Shown piece by piece: positions 8,128 to 47,494 of a stretch of 64,000 bases of DNA. Made by a program: the position numbers and the translations under genes. The notes under the pieces were generated by a model that was not told the origin of the DNA, ran no database searches, and was given only the letters and a program-made list of their open reading frames with translations. Origin of the DNA: Escherichia phage 121Q; the sequence record NC_025447.1. The stretch is one strand, 5' to 3'. Each line of letters starts with the position of its first letter. Position 1 is the stretch's first letter.

Positions 8128-8946
8128 ATGACAAAATTAAATGAGTTTTTATCAAATGTAGCAGTTCTAGATACTGAAACTACTGGGGTTGAGAGTGAAG
8201 ATGATATTATTGAATTTAGTATCTCGTATCCACATACTTCACATGAAAACATTGATACTATTGATAACTATACATTGAGATACAAACCCTTGAAAGATAT
8301 TCCACCAGAGGCATCTGCTGTGCACTTTATCAGTACTGAGGATGTAGCTAATTGTGTTGGGTATAAAGATGATTTAGATAACATTGATGCACTTATGGGA
8401 TGCCGTAAGTATTTTGTTGGTCATAATGTACAATTTGACCGTAGAATGATGGTAGATAACGAATATAAATATCGTAACTCAATTTCACAGTACTTACTTG
8501 ATGAAAATAAATGGATTTGTACCCTTCGTCTTGCTAAGAAAATGTTCGCAGAAGATATTGAATTTAAAAACTTAACTCTAAGTTATTTGTGGTATAAGTT
8601 TGGATGTTATCGTGATGTTCATCGACCTGTTAATGCACACGCAGCAAAAGACGATGTGTTCATGTGTTATCAGGTTCTAATCAAATTAGTTGAAATTGCA
8701 ATCGAACGTGGACATATTGAACCTAATGGTGATATTGGTGAGCAAATTGTAACTTTCTGCAACACACCAATGCGTTATCAATTCATGCCATTTGGTAAAC
8801 ACAAAGGTGAGCCAATGAGTACAGTTCCATTGAATTACATTGAATGGATGATTACTAATAGTGACATTTTAGATGCAAGTAACCCTAACTGTGATAAAGA
8901 TTTAGTATATACATTTGAGTACGAATATAATACTCGAACTAATTAA
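8128..8946 (+). CDS. DEDDh 3-prime to 5-prime exonuclease (DnaQ/ExoX-like) with C-terminal FGKHKG module
   Basis: Exo motifs LDTETTG, HNVQFD and HAAKDD; C-terminal FGKHKGEP...YIEWM resembles the ExoX-like C-terminal domain. Confidence 0.6.
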   Translation: MTKLNEFLSNVAVLDTETTGVESEDDIIEFSISYPHTSHENIDTIDNYTLRYKPLKDIPPEASAVHFISTEDVANCVGYKDDLDNIDALMGCRKYFVGHNVQFDRRMMVDNEYKYRNSISQYLLDENKWICTLRLAKKMFAEDIEFKNLTLSYLWYKFGCYRDVHRPVNAHAAKDDVFMCYQVLIKLVEIAIERGHIEPNGDIGEQIVTFCNTPMRYQFMPFGKHKGEPMSTVPLNYIEWMITNSDILDASNPNCDKDLVYTFEYEYNTRTN

Positions 8947-12287: not shown

Positions 12288-12978
12288 CCAAGTATATACC
12301 TGTAGATTTTGTGATCGTGAATTTAAACGTGAAGAAACTGTAAACACACATAAATGTATAAAACGTGACCGATACGAAGATCGCCAAAGCCGCCAGATGA
12401 TGGAGGCTTTTCGTATATATATGCAATTTATGGAATTGAATAAGTTCCCATTTAAAAAAGGCGTAGAGCCTTTTATTGCTTTTATAAAGTCAAAGTACTT
12501 TAATGATTTTTATAATTTTGCCGAATACTATTTGAATAATAGAGATATTATTAATGTGGACGAGTTTGTAAAGTACTTGATTATCAATAACAAACCAATC
12601 ACGGAATGGAGTACATATAAAGCAAAAGATGAATGGATATTAAAAACGATTCGTGCCGAGCACCCAAAAGAAGCAATTGCAAGAAGTGTTATCTCACTGG
12701 TTGAATGGGCTGAAAATTTGAATGTACAATGGAATACTTTCTTTGAAAATGTAAGTTCTGCTCGTGCAATTGCATGGATAGAGAGTGGTAAAATTTCACC
12801 TTGGATTATCTGGCTTGCTCCTAAAAAAAGTACTAATAAGTTTTTTAAAAAACTATCAAACTCAGAAATTGAATATATACTTAAATACATCGATCCAAGT
12901 TATTTTGAAATCAAAACTATAAAATACAAAAAGGATTGTGATGAAATTAAGATTATGCTATGTGAGGCAGGATTATGA
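12268..12978 (+). CDS. hypothetical protein with N-terminal CCHC zinc finger
   Basis: C-x2-C-x12-H-x-C near N-terminus (YTCRFCDREF...NTHKC). Confidence 0.5.
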   Translation: MAKKSSNQVYTCRFCDREFKREETVNTHKCIKRDRYEDRQSRQMMEAFRIYMQFMELNKFPFKKGVEPFIAFIKSKYFNDFYNFAEYYLNNRDIINVDEFVKYLIINNKPITEWSTYKAKDEWILKTIRAEHPKEAIARSVISLVEWAENLNVQWNTFFENVSSARAIAWIESGKISPWIIWLAPKKSTNKFFKKLSNSEIEYILKYIDPSYFEIKTIKYKKDCDEIKIMLCEAGL

Positions 12979-13304
12979 ATGGAAAAAGTATATATAATAA
13001 AATACCAGAAGGGTATGTACCTGTACCTAAAGAACAAAAATCAAAACAAATATCTCTACTTAGACAAGGATCTATTACTGAAATAACTTTAGATGGTAAA
13101 ACATTTCAAGTTCATGATCCTGCTCGTATTGAAAAAATTATTTCTTTGGTAGAAAGACACGAAGAACGATTTTTCAGTTTAAGTCAAGAGTTGGCAAAGA
13201 CAAAACAAAATTGTAGACTATTAGAGAATCAAATATCAACTTTGACTAATACAGTTAAACAGTTACAGGAGCAAATAAAAAATGCAGGATTCGACCGATT
13301 CTAA
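12975..13304 (+). CDS. hypothetical coiled-coil protein
   Basis: ORF track; overlapping start/stop. Confidence 0.45.
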   Translation: MNGKSIYNKIPEGYVPVPKEQKSKQISLLRQGSITEITLDGKTFQVHDPARIEKIISLVERHEERFFSLSQELAKTKQNCRLLENQISTLTNTVKQLQEQIKNAGFDRF

Positions 13305-13920
13305 ACATTATAGAAAAGCCCGAACTGATATTGACATTGACTTCAAGGATAGTAAAAGCGTAATTGCAAAACTTCCTTGCGTGCGAAGTACTGAAAAAAT
13401 TACGGAGGATGGTTTAATCCCCCATAATAGTGGTGTTCATTTTGATAATATACCAATTGATCCAATAACCGGATTGGCAAGTATACAATATAAAGAAGCT
13501 GAAAGTCTAGGATATCAAAAAGTTGATATTCTTTCACAGTCAGCTTACATGTATGTTCGTGATAGAGAGCATTTAAAAGAACTAATGAATCAGGAACCAA
13601 ATTGGGATCTATTATTAGAACCGGAAATTGTAGAACATCTTTCGCAAATTAAAAAACATGTAACTTTATTAAATGTATGGAAACCTAAATCCATAGACGA
13701 ACTTGCAATGTTTATTGCAATGATACGCCCTGGAAAAAGGCAGTGCCAAAGTATGAACACATGGGACGAAGTTAAAGCCACCATATGGGATTATAGTACT
13801 ATCGGCACTGACCAAGCAGGAAATAAATTACGATATTTCAAAAAGCCACATGCTTATGCATATAGCTTAATGATTGTTGTACAACTAAATGCTTTAGTTG
13901 AACATCTTACTTCTTCTTAA
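13282..13920 (+). CDS. hypothetical protein
   Basis: ORF track. Confidence 0.5.
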   Translation: MQDSTDSKHYRKARTDIDIDFKDSKSVIAKLPCVRSTEKITEDGLIPHNSGVHFDNIPIDPITGLASIQYKEAESLGYQKVDILSQSAYMYVRDREHLKELMNQEPNWDLLLEPEIVEHLSQIKKHVTLLNVWKPKSIDELAMFIAMIRPGKRQCQSMNTWDEVKATIWDYSTIGTDQAGNKLRYFKKPHAYAYSLMIVVQLNALVEHLTSS

Positions 13921-14260
13921 GAGCCACATTACGACGCTTGATGCGTTTTTGTGGCAAATTGCTTAAAGAAACTACTGGACCACATACGAAATTCACCGAC
14001 GGTGTATCGAATCTCTGTGTGTACGGTTCAAATTTCTCCATCTCTTCTTGAAAGAATAGACAAACTGGAATGGTTCTATTACTTTGCCACCACCAATCGT
14101 GTGCTATACCTAACAATTCGTCTTGCATTGAATCATCCATATCATCGAAACAGTAAAGAGTTGTATACTGTTTGCTTTTGATTTTGATGATACCAACAAA
14201 CGTTTTACCATCATACTGGATTACAGTAATGAATGGTGGAATAGTGTTATATTGATTCAT
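13907..14260 (-). CDS. hypothetical protein (isolated minus-strand gene)
   Basis: 117 aa ORF fills the gap between two plus-strand genes; weak SD; palindromic late-promoter-like element just upstream. Confidence 0.4.
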   Translation of the reverse strand: MNQYNTIPPFITVIQYDGKTFVGIIKIKSKQYTTLYCFDDMDDSMQDELLGIAHDWWWQSNRTIPVCLFFQEEMEKFEPYTQRFDTPSVNFVCGPVVSLSNLPQKRIKRRNVALKKK

Positions 14261-33943: not shown

Positions 33944-35006
<1,063 letters not shown>

Positions 35007-35017
35007 AATATAGACTT

Positions 35018-37183
<2,166 letters not shown>

Positions 37184-41512: not shown

Positions 41513-41543
41513 GGAAGACCTTACTGGGTCTTCCTTGTCCTTT
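41513..41543 (+). terminator. intrinsic terminator after gp52-like gene
   Basis: GGAAGACC / GGTCTTCC stem, T-rich tail. Confidence 0.6.
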
Positions 41544-41590: not shown

Positions 41591-43984
41591 ATGACAACTT
41601 TTACCCCACGTTGGGATATAAAAGCCGATGCTCGATATATACAAGAAGGACAAGACATTCTTGTGCGTTTGAGTATCAATAAAGAAAGCACAACGGATGA
41701 TAGCTATGTATTAAACGAAGATGAATACTTAGAGATGATTCTTAATATACAATGCTTGGATAGTTCAGGTGCTGTATTTGATCCAGAACCACATTATACT
41801 TTTTATGTTGGTAATGACGAAAATAGTTTTATTCCTATTTCAGATGGAACAACTGGTAATAAATTAGTAAATGGTAAGCATAAGTGTAAGATTAGCAAAA
41901 CAGAATTTAACTTATCATCAAGTACTAATACTGAAGATGTTTATTTTATAAAAATTCATTGTAAAAATGACGGAACATATAATAATACTGAAAATATAAA
42001 TTTTTATTTACAAGCAGTAAATGTTATGTATTTTGGGAATATTTCACCAAGTGGAGTTTTAGGATTAACAGATACTTCAATAACATATGATAGTCAGGAA
42101 GTTTGGGTTACACCTGGAGTTGAGATTGGTGATGACAAAAAACTTTATTGTATTGGTGATGTTGAGTATGGTTCAAACAGTACATTGTTTGTTCAAGGGT
42201 TTGGGAGAAGAAGACCTTTTATACTCGGTACTGACATGACTACCGATATTACCCCTCGTGTATTCTTTCCTGCATATCGTTTGATTGACATGGATATATC
42301 TGAAGTTCCAGATAAACATATTACTAATGATTATGCCGTATTTAAACCAGCACAACCAACATGGCCTATTTCTGGCATAAACAAAGAAGTAAAAGTTAAT
42401 ATTCAAAATAGAAATGGTAATTTAATTGATTCAGGTATGGTTTTTAACCCTAATGGACAATTACTACAAACATTTTTATATGATTCAGATGCGTGTGATG
42501 CATATTTCAAAGTTGAAATTGTTGATATATTAAGTACATACACAGAAGAAAGCGAAAGGTTTGCTATCAATCAAAGATATAAGGCATATCAAATGTGGGT
42601 TTGTCCTGAAGATATTGACACTATATATTCTATAGCTGACAAACCACTACCGAATCATTTATATCAATTAAAAGATAACGTTGTATATCCCTATGTGATT
42701 AGTGGTGAGTACGACAATGGGTCAATTAAACCAGTTTATGATAGTAGTGATTGGATTGATTTGGGATATTATGACTCTACTCTTGGTGATAATATCATTG
42801 GTATGCAGAAAATGTTCAGGGTTTTGATTAACGCTGAAGAAGGTAATAATATAAACTTTGTTACTGATAGTGATTTGGGAACTATACATGTTGGTGAATA
42901 TTTTGGAGACAGTACCTATCCTAGAATAGAAACTGATAGTTCAAATCAGGTTTCGTATGTTTTGGATGGTGGTGATGATATTAGGAAGTATGGAATAGAT
43001 TTGACACCTGACGGATATCTTGTTGGAACTGCATATGCCAAAAGTATTGACTTTAGTGAAAACGATGACATTAAACTATCGTTTTATGTTAAAGCATTTA
43101 GTACTGAAGGTGGCGAAGCAAGGAAAATATTTAACCTTAAGATTGTAAGAGGGTTCGGTCAGAATTATTTGAGTGCACATGTACTACCGTCTGTTGCATT
43201 TGAGCGAGAGTGGTTTAAATGTATCAGTACTTCATCATTTACTAATCAACTTTTTTTCCGTCAATCTGATAATAGGTATGGTCTTCAGAAAGTTCCTAGG
43301 ATGTTATTGAAAGAAAACTTTCTAAGTCAAACGTACCCATATACTAATCTTTCGGATATCAAAAAAGTATTACGAAATAGTATCATTAATCCAAATGGCT
43401 CTACTATACCAAATGGAAAATTTAAAATGGTAATGGGTAATTATAAATTGATATCAGCACTTGACAATCAAGGCAATTTGCAATATGATTTATTATATAG
43501 AGAAGTTTTACCTGAAGGTTCTTTAGTATCTGTATCCAAAAATCCTCGTATGTATACTCAAATAGATAATGGTCAGCTTGGTGAACTGTTTGGTCTACGT
43601 CAAAATATCTTTCAAGCTATTGGTGAAGACACAACAAACTTGGTAAAAGATCCAACTGATTTACAAAATCGTGGTCTATACGTTGATGCTATACCAAGTA
43701 TCAGCGATGAAATGCTTGATACCGTTCCAAGATTTATGAATCACCCATACATTGAAGATGGTATACAGAAAAAATTCATGCCTATTATCCCAGTCGCATT
43801 TTGTCAGCCAGGTAAAGGTGAAGCATTTTTCAACACTTTACTTCAGAATAATGAACATGGTACAATGGTAGGTCTAGAGTTTGAAATCACATCTGTCGAA
43901 TTTGGGTACTTTTCACATGAATCAGTAAATTATGTACCAGATACATTTGTGATTACATTGCAAAACAATAACATAGGAGGTTAA
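41591..43984 (+). CDS. large hypothetical protein, possibly late or structural
   Basis: TATAAATA at 41545-41552 and GGAG RBS before ATG 41591 (ORF track begins 41564). Confidence 0.5.
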   Translation: MTTFTPRWDIKADARYIQEGQDILVRLSINKESTTDDSYVLNEDEYLEMILNIQCLDSSGAVFDPEPHYTFYVGNDENSFIPISDGTTGNKLVNGKHKCKISKTEFNLSSSTNTEDVYFIKIHCKNDGTYNNTENINFYLQAVNVMYFGNISPSGVLGLTDTSITYDSQEVWVTPGVEIGDDKKLYCIGDVEYGSNSTLFVQGFGRRRPFILGTDMTTDITPRVFFPAYRLIDMDISEVPDKHITNDYAVFKPAQPTWPISGINKEVKVNIQNRNGNLIDSGMVFNPNGQLLQTFLYDSDACDAYFKVEIVDILSTYTEESERFAINQRYKAYQMWVCPEDIDTIYSIADKPLPNHLYQLKDNVVYPYVISGEYDNGSIKPVYDSSDWIDLGYYDSTLGDNIIGMQKMFRVLINAEEGNNINFVTDSDLGTIHVGEYFGDSTYPRIETDSSNQVSYVLDGGDDIRKYGIDLTPDGYLVGTAYAKSIDFSENDDIKLSFYVKAFSTEGGEARKIFNLKIVRGFGQNYLSAHVLPSVAFEREWFKCISTSSFTNQLFFRQSDNRYGLQKVPRMLLKENFLSQTYPYTNLSDIKKVLRNSIINPNGSTIPNGKFKMVMGNYKLISALDNQGNLQYDLLYREVLPEGSLVSVSKNPRMYTQIDNGQLGELFGLRQNIFQAIGEDTTNLVKDPTDLQNRGLYVDAIPSISDEMLDTVPRFMNHPYIEDGIQKKFMPIIPVAFCQPGKGEAFFNTLLQNNEHGTMVGLEFEITSVEFGYFSHESVNYVPDTFVITLQNNNIGG

Positions 43985-43985
43985 T

Positions 43986-44297
43986 ATGTTTAATCCGTTT
44001 TTTGACCCGTCTGGGATGACGGAGAAAGAACTACAGTTGAAAATTAATGAACAGTCAATGCGTATAACTTCAGCCCGTGCCGCTGGTATGAGTGATATGA
44101 TTATTGGTAATATGCAAACTGTGTTAAATCAATGTTATGCTGAACTAGAACTTCGTCAAGGACAAAAAGAAAAATCTGTTTATGATGAAGAAGACTCATG
44201 TATCTTCGACATGGATTCTTATCTAACTGACAATGAAGAGGCCCAGAAAAAGAAAAATGAAAGTACAAGGAAACAGATTTATAAGTCCCAATGGTGA
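43986..44297 (+). CDS. hypothetical protein
   Basis: AGGAGG RBS. Confidence 0.5.
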   Translation: MFNPFFDPSGMTEKELQLKINEQSMRITSARAAGMSDMIIGNMQTVLNQCYAELELRQGQKEKSVYDEEDSCIFDMDSYLTDNEEAQKKKNESTRKQIYKSQW

Positions 44298-44775
44298 TGT
44301 AAAATGTAATCTTAACGCAGTAGTTTATGCAATCAATTGCGGTGCGGATATCCAGTACTTACAATTGCAGGAAATTGATGAACCTGAAAGGTTGAAATTC
44401 AATGATAACTGTAAAAAATTTGGCTTAGAACAACGTATGCTGGATTATACTATCGAGCATGATAAAAATCATGAACTTTGGCGTTATGATCCAGTATACG
44501 ACAATATAAATCTACGTGACTTTTTCTTACAAAAATGTACATCAGATGAAGCACGAAAGCGTGTTGAGTATGAACTAGATTTATATGAATATTATAATAT
44601 GACAAAGCTATTAAGATGTATGATATGGCTTGTTGATTATATGGAAGAAAATGAGATCTTTTGGGGTCTAGGGCGTGGAAGCTCGGTTGCATCATACTGT
44701 TTGTTTTTGATTGGTCTACACATGGTAGATTCATTGAAATACGAACTCGATGTTAATGAATTTTTGAAATGGTAG
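44233..44775 (+). CDS. hypothetical protein
   Basis: Overlaps upstream ORF by about 65 nt, no clear SD; start uncertain. Confidence 0.4.
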   Translation: MKRPRKRKMKVQGNRFISPNGDVKCNLNAVVYAINCGADIQYLQLQEIDEPERLKFNDNCKKFGLEQRMLDYTIEHDKNHELWRYDPVYDNINLRDFFLQKCTSDEARKRVEYELDLYEYYNMTKLLRCMIWLVDYMEENEIFWGLGRGSSVASYCLFLIGLHMVDSLKYELDVNEFLKW

Positions 44776-44784
44776 CAAAACATG

Positions 44785-44793
44785 TGATATAAT
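44785..44793 (+). promoter_or_regulatory. extended -10 promoter element inside a 10-bp inverted repeat
   Basis: TGTGATATAATG; TGTGATATAA (44783-44792) pairs with TTATATCACA (44807-44816). Confidence 0.5.
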
Positions 44794-44838: not shown

Positions 44839-45183
44839 ATGTCTAAACATACAACTTATCGTGGTACAACAATTGACATGGATATGCTCAAGTACCAAAA
44901 TCAACATCAGGTAGCATTGGGTAATGCTAATCTAAACGCACGTGGTGATAAAATTGGTTCAGGTGGAACAATTATCAAAACTCGTGAAGAGTTGATACAA
45001 GAAAAAGAAAGAGAAATGCAAATTCCTGATTATATCCCTGAACACCAACTTCATAGTACTGAACATAGTTCTGAGGAAGTATGGGATGATGAAAGTTTTG
45101 AAGTTAAGCCCGAAGCACAAGAAGCTGAGGTTTCTGAAGAGAAGAAAGCCCCACGTCGAGCAAAAACTAAAGATCAGGAGTAA
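44839..45183 (+). CDS. hypothetical protein
   Basis: AAAAGGA RBS; downstream of extended -10 promoter. Confidence 0.5.
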   Translation: MSKHTTYRGTTIDMDMLKYQNQHQVALGNANLNARGDKIGSGGTIIKTREELIQEKEREMQIPDYIPEHQLHSTEHSSEEVWDDESFEVKPEAQEAEVSEEKKAPRRAKTKDQE

Positions 45184-45518: not shown

Positions 45519-45532
45519 TAAAATATAATTAA

Positions 45533-45560
45533 AGCTCGGATTAATATCTGGGCTTTTTAT
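45533..45560 (+). terminator. intrinsic terminator
   Basis: 9-bp stem with two G-U pairs then TTTTT. Confidence 0.55.
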
Positions 45561-45574
45561 TTGGACACATTTTG

Positions 45575-45844
45575 ATGATAACGGATGATGGAAAATTTAG
45601 TTTCAAAGATGTAACATTAGTATCAAAAAACGGAAGATTCATGTTTGAAGATAGAAAAAATACAAAATATGTATATGAAGTTTCACATGATATGTTTAAA
45701 GTTTTATTAGTTGCATCGGCCCAAGCTGAAAGTACTGGGATTAAAAATAAGGCAAATTCTTTTAATTTTTTATTAAATCAATTGGAAATGACAGAAGAAC
45801 TTTTCACGGCTTTATTATATAATTCAGCCGATTGGATTCTATAA
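45575..45844 (+). CDS. hypothetical protein
   Basis: ORF-track frame, ATG at 45575. Confidence 0.4.
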   Translation: MITDDGKFSFKDVTLVSKNGRFMFEDRKNTKYVYEVSHDMFKVLLVASAQAESTGIKNKANSFNFLLNQLEMTEELFTALLYNSADWIL

Positions 45845-45867
45845 CACGTACACATAAGGAAATAAAA

Positions 45868-46821
45868 ATGACCACACTATGGACTGAAAAATATCGCCCA
45901 CAATCAATGGAAGATTATGTATCAAAAAATGATGCACTACGCCAGAAAATGGAAGAATGGATTAAAACTGGTGACATTCCACATATTGGGTTTTTTGGCC
46001 CAGCAGGAACTGGTAAAACATCTGCGATCAAAGTACTCATTAATGGATTGGTACAGAATGGACACCTTGACCCAAGTGATGTGACTACGCTTAACATGTC
46101 GGATGAGGGTATTGATGCAGTTCGTGATAAAATCGATGCCGCAGCAAAGCTATCATGTTTTGGTAGGTATCGTATCTTTGTTCTTGAAGAAATGGAGCAG
46201 ATGAACCATAAAGCACAAGGTAGTTTGAAACGTGTAATGGAAGACTATCATGAAAATGCTCGCTTTATTTTAACAAGTAACGAACCACATAAAATTCAAA
46301 AACCTATCATTTCTCGTGTTCAAGTTATTACAATCGAAAAGCATGATATGGAACAATTCATGACTCGAATTTATAATATTCTTCTAGCAGAAGGTGTTGA
46401 TTTGAGTAGTGATGATAGTGTTGAACAAGTTCAAAAGTATATCAATGCTTCCTATCCTGATTTCCGTAAAACACTAAACGTATTGCAAAGTTCAGTTGTT
46501 GATGGTAAGCTAGTAAAACTTGAAGATAGTATTGAAAATTCAGCAGGGTATCGTACTGCAATTGTTGAAGCATTAAAGGCAGGAAACATTCGCCAAATGC
46601 GTGAACAAATTGTACAAAATATCCCTGATGATGAGATGGATGCATTCTTTTCTTATCTGTATCGTAATGCTGAAATGTTCAGTACTGATGAAATTACTCT
46701 TATGAAAATCAAGGTTAAGATTCGTGATGCTGTTGTAAAACAAGCAACTGTATCTGACCGTGAAATGAATCTCAGTGCACTTCTGTGCGAGATTGACCTA
46801 ATTTGTTCGGGGAACATGTAA
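45868..46821 (+). CDS. 44: clamp loader subunit (gp44/RFC-like AAA+)
   Basis: KYRP box, Walker A GPAGTGKTS, Walker B FVLEEME, sensor SRVQVI; start at ATG 45868 with AAGGA RBS. Confidence 0.8.
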   Translation: MTTLWTEKYRPQSMEDYVSKNDALRQKMEEWIKTGDIPHIGFFGPAGTGKTSAIKVLINGLVQNGHLDPSDVTTLNMSDEGIDAVRDKIDAAAKLSCFGRYRIFVLEEMEQMNHKAQGSLKRVMEDYHENARFILTSNEPHKIQKPIISRVQVITIEKHDMEQFMTRIYNILLAEGVDLSSDDSVEQVQKYINASYPDFRKTLNVLQSSVVDGKLVKLEDSIENSAGYRTAIVEALKAGNIRQMREQIVQNIPDDEMDAFFSYLYRNAEMFSTDEITLMKIKVKIRDAVVKQATVSDREMNLSALLCEIDLICSGNM

Positions 46822-47459: not shown

Positions 47460-47494
47460 GGGGGGTTTGAATCAAACCCCTTTTGTTGTTTTTT
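47460..47494 (+). terminator. intrinsic terminator
   Basis: GGGGTTTG / CAAACCCC stem followed by long T-rich tract. Confidence 0.8.

Follow-up and report, generated by a model that had tools for sequence, protein, structure and literature searches.

A conserved 41-nt gene overlap at the start of the predicted N-terminal unit of a split DNA polymerase III alpha in a Rak2-like jumbo phage

The two overlapping open reading frames found at 43986-44775 of the window (the whole 64,000-nt stretch of DNA that was analysed) are very probably two independent, co-transcribed genes sharing a conserved overlap of 41 nt, the second of which (ORF2) starts at 44257 and encodes the N-terminal unit of a split Pol III alpha whose partner is encoded at 13282-13920. 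The DNA around the overlap is ~94% identical to that of Escherichia phage PBECO4 and its relatives, which are Asteriusvirus, Rak2-like jumbo myoviruses with genomes of ~350 kb, and the window belongs to a Rak2-like (Asteriusvirus) jumbo phage. The features referred to below are the following:

43975..43981, + strand: Shine-Dalgarno (SD) sequence of ORF1, AGGAGGT, 4 nt before the ORF1 ATG
43986..44297, + strand: ORF1, 103 aa, phrog_15348, with its stop TGA at 44295-44297
44233..44235, + strand: ATG, not the ORF2 start, a by-product of an AAT (Asn) codon of ORF1
44257..44297, + strand: dual-coding overlap of ORF1 and ORF2, 41 nt, with exactly this length in 16 other genomes
44257..44775, + strand: ORF2, 172 aa, N-terminus MKVQGNR…
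13282..13920, + strand: predicted C-terminal (Mg2+- and template-binding) unit of the split Pol III alpha, 212 aa, 31 kb upstream of ORF2

The sequence-only reading had described an overlap of about 65 nt. This figure holds for the ORF that is open from the ATG at 44233 to 44775, whose frame is +1 relative to that of ORF1, but not for the gene. The 65 shared nucleotides contain two in-frame ATGs, 44233 and 44257, the second of which had not been singled out earlier. We rejected the first as the ORF2 start: it is not conserved, the codon at this position being AAC in PBECO4, TH47 and Turkey5, and AAT or AAC is a synonymous choice for an Asn of ORF1. Among 5.8 billion proteins searched, 176 were ORF2 homologs, and the full-length ones are almost all of 172 aa. 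Their N-termini align as MKVQGNR-I---G-V---LNAVVYA-NCG, down to ~60% identity, while the residues upstream of the Met of MKVQ are variable or missing. The RefSeq start in PBECO4, GAP32, CBB and Yen9-04 is also the one equivalent to 44257. Judged by these alignments, ORF2 starts at AUG 44257 and is a 172-aa polypeptide of its own, and the true overlap with ORF1 is therefore 41 nt. The annotation should be set accordingly (start at 44257, 172 aa). It had also been claimed that no start follows the ORF1 stop until far downstream, and this is correct, with the next in-frame ATG at 44437 and an in-frame TTG at 44365. The claim that ORF2 has no SD is roughly right as well: there is a GAGG 15 nt before 44257, but it is too distant and is not conserved across genera, being absent in RaK2, GAP32, CBB and others.

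The overlap encodes codons 1-13 of ORF2 plus two bases of codon 14 (MKVQGNRFISPNG) and, in the other frame, the tail of ORF1 ((N)ESTRKQIYKSQW-stop). The distance from the ORF2 ATG to the end of ORF1 is exactly 41 nt in 13/13 isolate genomes and in 3/3 metagenomic contigs. The isolates come from at least four genera (Asteriusvirus, Alcyoneusvirus, Mimasvirus and Eneladusvirus) and from unclassified relatives, and the N unit of the three contigs is only 60-71% identical. Escherichia phage CMSTMSU (MH494197.1) was left out of these comparisons, since its record is flagged UNVERIFIED and carries fragmented ORFs at the locus. Third-codon-position identity of ORF2 is 0.85 in the overlap versus 0.54 in the rest of the gene, with no other window of 13 codons exceeding 0.69; when only the invariant amino acids are considered, the values are 0.93 inside the overlap and 0.57 outside it. 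Invariably, the Gly codon is GGT and the codon before it has T as its last base, so that TGG-TGA/TAA is retained in the frame of ORF1. Where the Asp of ORF2 is replaced by Asn or Lys, the ORF1 stop turns into TAA and its position does not change. Both the AUG of ORF2 and the terminal Trp-stop of ORF1 are invariant. Since the conservation of synonymous sites is far higher in the overlap than in the rest of ORF2, the overlap is a case of true dual coding and not an artefact.

The same comparison bears on the sequencing indel suggested earlier, an error of sequencing or assembly that would have broken one gene in two or moved part of it out of frame. Two ORFs overlapping in different frames, the second with no obvious downstream start, are the expected product of such an error. 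It is refuted here: in 16 independently sequenced genomes whose proteins are 60-100% identical, both ORFs recur with unchanged lengths and an identical 41-nt overlap, and ORF1 and ORF2 belong to separate PHROG families, each matched over its full length. CMSTMSU, the sole relative with broken ORFs at this locus, is the exception; in this record (UNVERIFIED_ORG) the region of ORF1 and the N unit is split into many short ORFs, which looks like sequencing error. Orthologs with two independent, well-separated genes and conserved starts had been proposed as the observation that would refute the earlier reading. What they have is two independent genes with conserved starts that are not well separated, overlapping by 41 nt. 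Overlaps occur at 17/59 co-directional junctions in the homologous 50 kb of PBECO4, the 41-nt one being the longest, followed by those of 23, 23 and 20 nt. The overlap, between two independent genes, is of an ordinary kind for a phage, as produced by routine genome compaction.

ORF1 follows an 806-aa virion-protein gene, whose stop TAA is at 43982-43984. In the homologous 50 kb of PBECO4, 62 gene starts were compared; the strongest anti-SD duplex (-10.9 kcal/mol) is that of the site homologous to the ORF1 start, and an SD is weak or missing in about a fifth of the genes. Identity at codon positions 1, 2 and 3 of ORF1 is 0.61, 0.74 and 0.44, and this pattern (position 2 above position 1 above position 3) indicates that ORF1 is coding. 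The gene was seen only in the Rak2-like clade (12 clusters, 102-103 aa where complete), and its family, PHROG 15348, which it matches over the full length, is annotated as of unknown function. The AF2 model of ORF1 (pLDDT 74) has a helical hairpin at residues 13-69 and a tail with values below 60. This tail, acidic and then basic before the final invariant Trp-stop, is probably disordered, as judged from the model, and the part encoded in the overlap has pLDDT values of 38-46. Low model confidence is common for overprinted segments. A Foldseek search with the ORF1 model returned generic helical hairpins only (E > 0.5) and no significant fold match.

A further proposal was that a frameshift joins the two ORFs. 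A programmed +1 (or -2) shift within 44257-44297 would fuse ORF1 and ORF2 into a product of ~260 aa, made besides or in place of the separate proteins. ORF2 has no usable SD and starts inside ORF1, the overlap is unusually long and conserved, and the window contains AAG-AAA-AAT-G, on which the Lys-tRNA could slip +1 onto AAA so that ATG would be read next. This sole candidate is, however, altered in EJP2, BF, 7t3, Kaldavass and L020-L022, and the A-run itself varies (…AACCACATG in EJP2, …GAAACATG in BF and …ATACCGATG in L020). In the alignment of the 16 junctions, no shift-prone motif is invariant beyond what the two coding frames need, and the putative shift site holds no slow codon or stop. 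Nor is there a conserved downstream structure: RNAalifold gave 0 conserved pairs for the 100-nt junction, and the local RNA fold, calculated on the single sequence, is weaker than that of shuffled sequence (z = +1.6). The ORF2 AUG is invariant, and the ORF1 tail is conserved right up to its Trp-stop, which would be pointless had the ribosomes left the frame earlier. Finally, distant N units have the same length (~170 aa) and stand alone behind unrelated genes. We therefore judge a programmed shift to be very improbable and discard the idea that ORF2 is made mainly as part of a fusion product. The pair was likewise not assigned to the programmed-frameshift genes, because the downstream frame has its own invariant AUG and occurs stand-alone in hundreds of clusters. 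The likeness to E. coli dnaX (-1 at A AAA AAG) and prfB (+1) is superficial, being limited to an A-rich stretch within a replication-related operon and to overlapping frames. Unlike those genes, ORF1-ORF2 has neither a conserved heptamer nor a stimulatory SD or hairpin, its downstream frame has a conserved AUG of its own, and the shift would have to be +1.

How then is ORF2 translated? ORF1 and ORF2 are on the same strand and in the same transcription unit, with no promoter- or terminator-like site above background between them; the ORF2 start is inside ORF1, near its stop, and the arrangement is conserved. Translational coupling of the pair, which had been listed among the earlier suggestions, is plausible on these sequence features: it fits a shared transcription unit, the lack of a usable SD, and a start located inside ORF1, whose SD is the strongest of the region. 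Initiation at 44257 would be SD-independent, taking place in an A-rich, unstructured region, and would probably depend on, or be tuned by, the ribosomes translating the heavily initiated ORF1, either by coupling or by termination-reinitiation within ~40 nt. An overlap of 41 nt is long for classical termination-reinitiation, and translation of ORF1 might equally occlude the ORF2 start.

Long same-strand overlaps with translational coupling are known in phages, as in coat/lysis of MS2, and many short ones exist in T4-like genomes. ORF1-ORF2 resembles the overlaps of the MS2 coat/lysis type in that the start of the downstream gene, in the +1 frame and lacking a strong SD, is located within the upstream one, which appears well translated. 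It differs from the coupled phage overlaps in that coupling is here suggested by sequence, and in that the 41-nt start-stop distance is at the upper end for scanning-reinitiation.

It is also possible, if somewhat doubtful, that the genes are separate in translation too, with ORF2 initiated wholly de novo on its A-rich leader (S1-dependent and SD-independent), and that the overlap has no regulatory role and is a mere by-product of genome compaction or overprinting. The region is indeed less structured than shuffled sequence, genes with little or no SD and overlapping junctions are both frequent in this part of the genome (see above), and in other jumbo phages the N units share 1-38 nt with unrelated genes upstream of them. 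Against this, the exact 41-nt register and the Trp-stop of ORF1 have been kept despite the changes in ORF2 (Asp to Asn/Lys, TGA to TAA), and the strongest SD of the region is that of ORF1, which suggests that ORF1 translation matters at the junction.

We turn now to the identity of ORF2. It matches Pfam PF07733 (DNA_pol3_alpha) at positions 16-95 of 260 (E = 2e-9) and, over its full length, phrog_11127, annotated as 'DNA polymerase' (3e-87). It aligns to E. coli DnaE from 320 to 392/396, including the GPGRGS motif (phmmer; hhalign E = 7e-6). ORF2 carries this motif as GxGRGSSV, and GRGSSV is invariant in 42 aligned sequences. Its end, …NEFLKW, corresponds to …FERFL(392) of E. coli DnaE, just upstream of the catalytic PDFDVDF (PDxDxD), and 42/42 aligned family members share this end point before the catalytic DxD. 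In the AF2 model of ORF2 (pLDDT 87), the top 10 PDB fold matches are all to C-family polymerases, with weak E values of 0.05-1 (Foldseek). Single-sequence and profile searches of the PDB sequences with the N unit or the C unit gave nothing useful. These homologies identify ORF2, as a prediction, as the N-terminal, NTP-binding unit of a split minimal Pol III alpha, a name that should replace 'truncated DNA polymerase III'.

The ORF2 family is large: an HMM scan of 1.84 billion representatives found 3083 members at E ≤ 1e-3 and 481 at E ≤ 1e-30, and the best 150 of the 3083 are all 152-196 aa long. The distant N units of Paride (of the PA5oct group), XacN1, Atu_ph07 and RsoM2USA are stand-alone proteins of 169-182 aa, encoded behind unrelated genes that they overlap by 17, 1, 4 and 38 nt, respectively. 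ORF1 was accordingly rejected as a universal partner of the N unit, the upstream genes of these four phages not being homologous to it (hmmsearch E > 0.2). The gene preceding the N unit of Ralstonia phage RsoM2USA (L019 870-1334; HAEMNA…PCTNC), with its overlap of 38 nt, looks from these motifs like a cytidine/dCMP deaminase; long overlaps at the start of the N unit thus recur with unrelated upstream genes.

The partner of ORF2 is the ORF at 13282-13920, which should be named the C-terminal partner of ORF2. Its product has …RKARTDIDIDF at its start, followed by HNSGV, KVDILS, IAMIRPGK and KKPHAYAY. TDIDIDF, KVDILS, IAMIRPGK and KKPHAYAY are colinear with E. coli DnaE 396-406, ~555, ~640 and 756-767, where ~555 is the third catalytic Asp and ~640 and 756-767 are finger motifs; the C unit has all three catalytic Asp residues as well as the finger motifs. 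It matches phrog_11778, 'DNA polymerase' (5e-108), and the finger domain PF17657 is matched by 5/9 members of the C-unit family (best E = 3e-5), while the single-sequence Pfam and hhalign scores of the C unit itself are marginal (E = 0.045 and 0.008). N and C units co-occur in the same jumbo phages, always 30-180 kb apart. The start of the C unit lies inside the upstream gene 12975-13304 (+), which encodes 109 aa annotated as a virion structural protein, with an overlap of 23 nt (32 nt in RaK2), so that each of the two enzyme halves starts within the gene before it. At its 3' end, the C unit overlaps the convergent ORF 13907-14260 (-) by 14 nt.

The two units would assemble into one polymerase-beta-like nucleotidyltransferase that would work beside the T4-type replisome of the phage; both the assembly and the polymerase activity are predictions. 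A split minimal Pol III alpha in the group 2.2 jumbo phages was described by Iyer, Anantharaman, Krishnan, Burroughs & Aravind (Viruses 2021;13:63; PMC7824862; section 3.4.1, Fig. 3b). Our pair has the features of that enzyme, with ORF2 as the NTP-binding N unit and 13282-13920 as the Mg2+-/template-binding C unit, encoded by distant genes; the hosts are the same (Rak2-like, PA5oct-like, Atu_ph07 and XacN1), the units are found beside genes of a probable T4-type replisome, and there is no essential difference. The content of the finding, that is, ORF2 as a computationally described component of a split mini-Pol III, is thus already known; what is added here is the break point in DnaE (392 / 396), the 41-nt overlap with a clade-specific gene and the size of the family. 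The 172-aa protein had earlier been noted as a 'truncated' Pol III alpha in the CBB genome paper (PMC5259590). A full-text literature search gave no further paper that deals with the split enzyme and none that tests its assembly or activity by experiment.

Compared with DnaE/PolC, the replicative polymerases of the C family in bacteria (PF07733 + PF17657; PDB 5fkv, 2hpi, 3e0d), the split enzyme has GxGRGS, the DxD and third Asp, RPG and KxHAxxY, all colinear, and every one of the best fold matches to the N-unit model is a DnaE or a PolC. It differs from them in having no PHP, normal-sized thumb, beta-clamp-binding motif, OB or tau-binding C-terminus, in its size (172 + 212 = 384 aa versus ~1160 aa) and in the break of the chain inside the palm domain. 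A canonical single-chain DnaE/PolC was rejected, as there are only partial PF07733 and weak PF17657 matches, and no PHP or OB matches. The enzyme would be a predicted two-piece, PHP-less C-family polymerase that jumbo phages of hundreds of lineages have in addition to a family B replicase. Knowledge of the exact break point and of the conserved upstream partner could aid the design of co-expression constructs.

We also considered whether ORF1 could itself be an assembly factor or accessory subunit of a three-part split mini-Pol III, an idea that is speculative and in our view unlikely. The strong SD of ORF1, its invariant Trp-stop and the fixed 41-nt register with the polymerase N unit would then set the stoichiometry of the enzyme, and the overlap would serve as a conserved device that couples the expression of a second phage DNA polymerase to ORF1.

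The window also encodes a T4-type replication and recombination module, with a 5'-3' exonuclease, gp32, UvsX, UvsY, a DnaQ-like exonuclease, a UvsW-like helicase, a primase, a DnaB-like helicase, ribonucleotide reductase and topoisomerase II, together with a GroES-like protein and an RFC-like clamp loader. Of the T4-type replisome of group 2.2 jumbo phages (family B polymerase, gp32, UvsW and RFC-like clamp loader), the family B polymerase gene lies outside the window; in the relative CBB, this polymerase is reported as CBB_263 (PMC5259590). The DnaQ/RNase T-type 3'-5' exonuclease is encoded at 8128-8946 (+) and is annotated in PBECO4 as 'DNA polymerase exonuclease subunit'; a C-terminal stretch of it matches PF12843 (QSregVF_b). 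The bacterial epsilon binds the PHP domain, which the mini-Pol III lacks, so that this exonuclease may serve either the mini-Pol III or another polymerase. The clamp-loader gene appears in the mechanical ORF list at 45832-46821, overlapping 45572-45844 (+) by 13 nt, with TTG starts. Since the list takes the first possible start codon, and the PBECO4 annotation begins the clamp loader 36 nt further downstream, at an internal Met (MTTLWTEKYRP), this overlap appears to be an artefact. Around 33944-35623, the window appears to be colinear with PBECO4 gp456-gp458, a correspondence by position only; the PBECO4 genes carry the annotations 'translation initiation factor', 'ATP-dependent protease' and 'KTSC domain-containing protein', which are unusual for a phage.

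Promoter-like matches in the region do not in total exceed the number expected from shuffled sequence. One of them, at 44764-44793 (+), is a near-consensus extended -10 sigma-70-like promoter (TTGAAA, an 18-nt spacer and TG-n-TATAAT) that sits at the ORF2 stop, upstream of a gene of 114 aa at 44839. Terminator-like hairpins are present at 41513-41534, 45531-45556 and 47460-47482.
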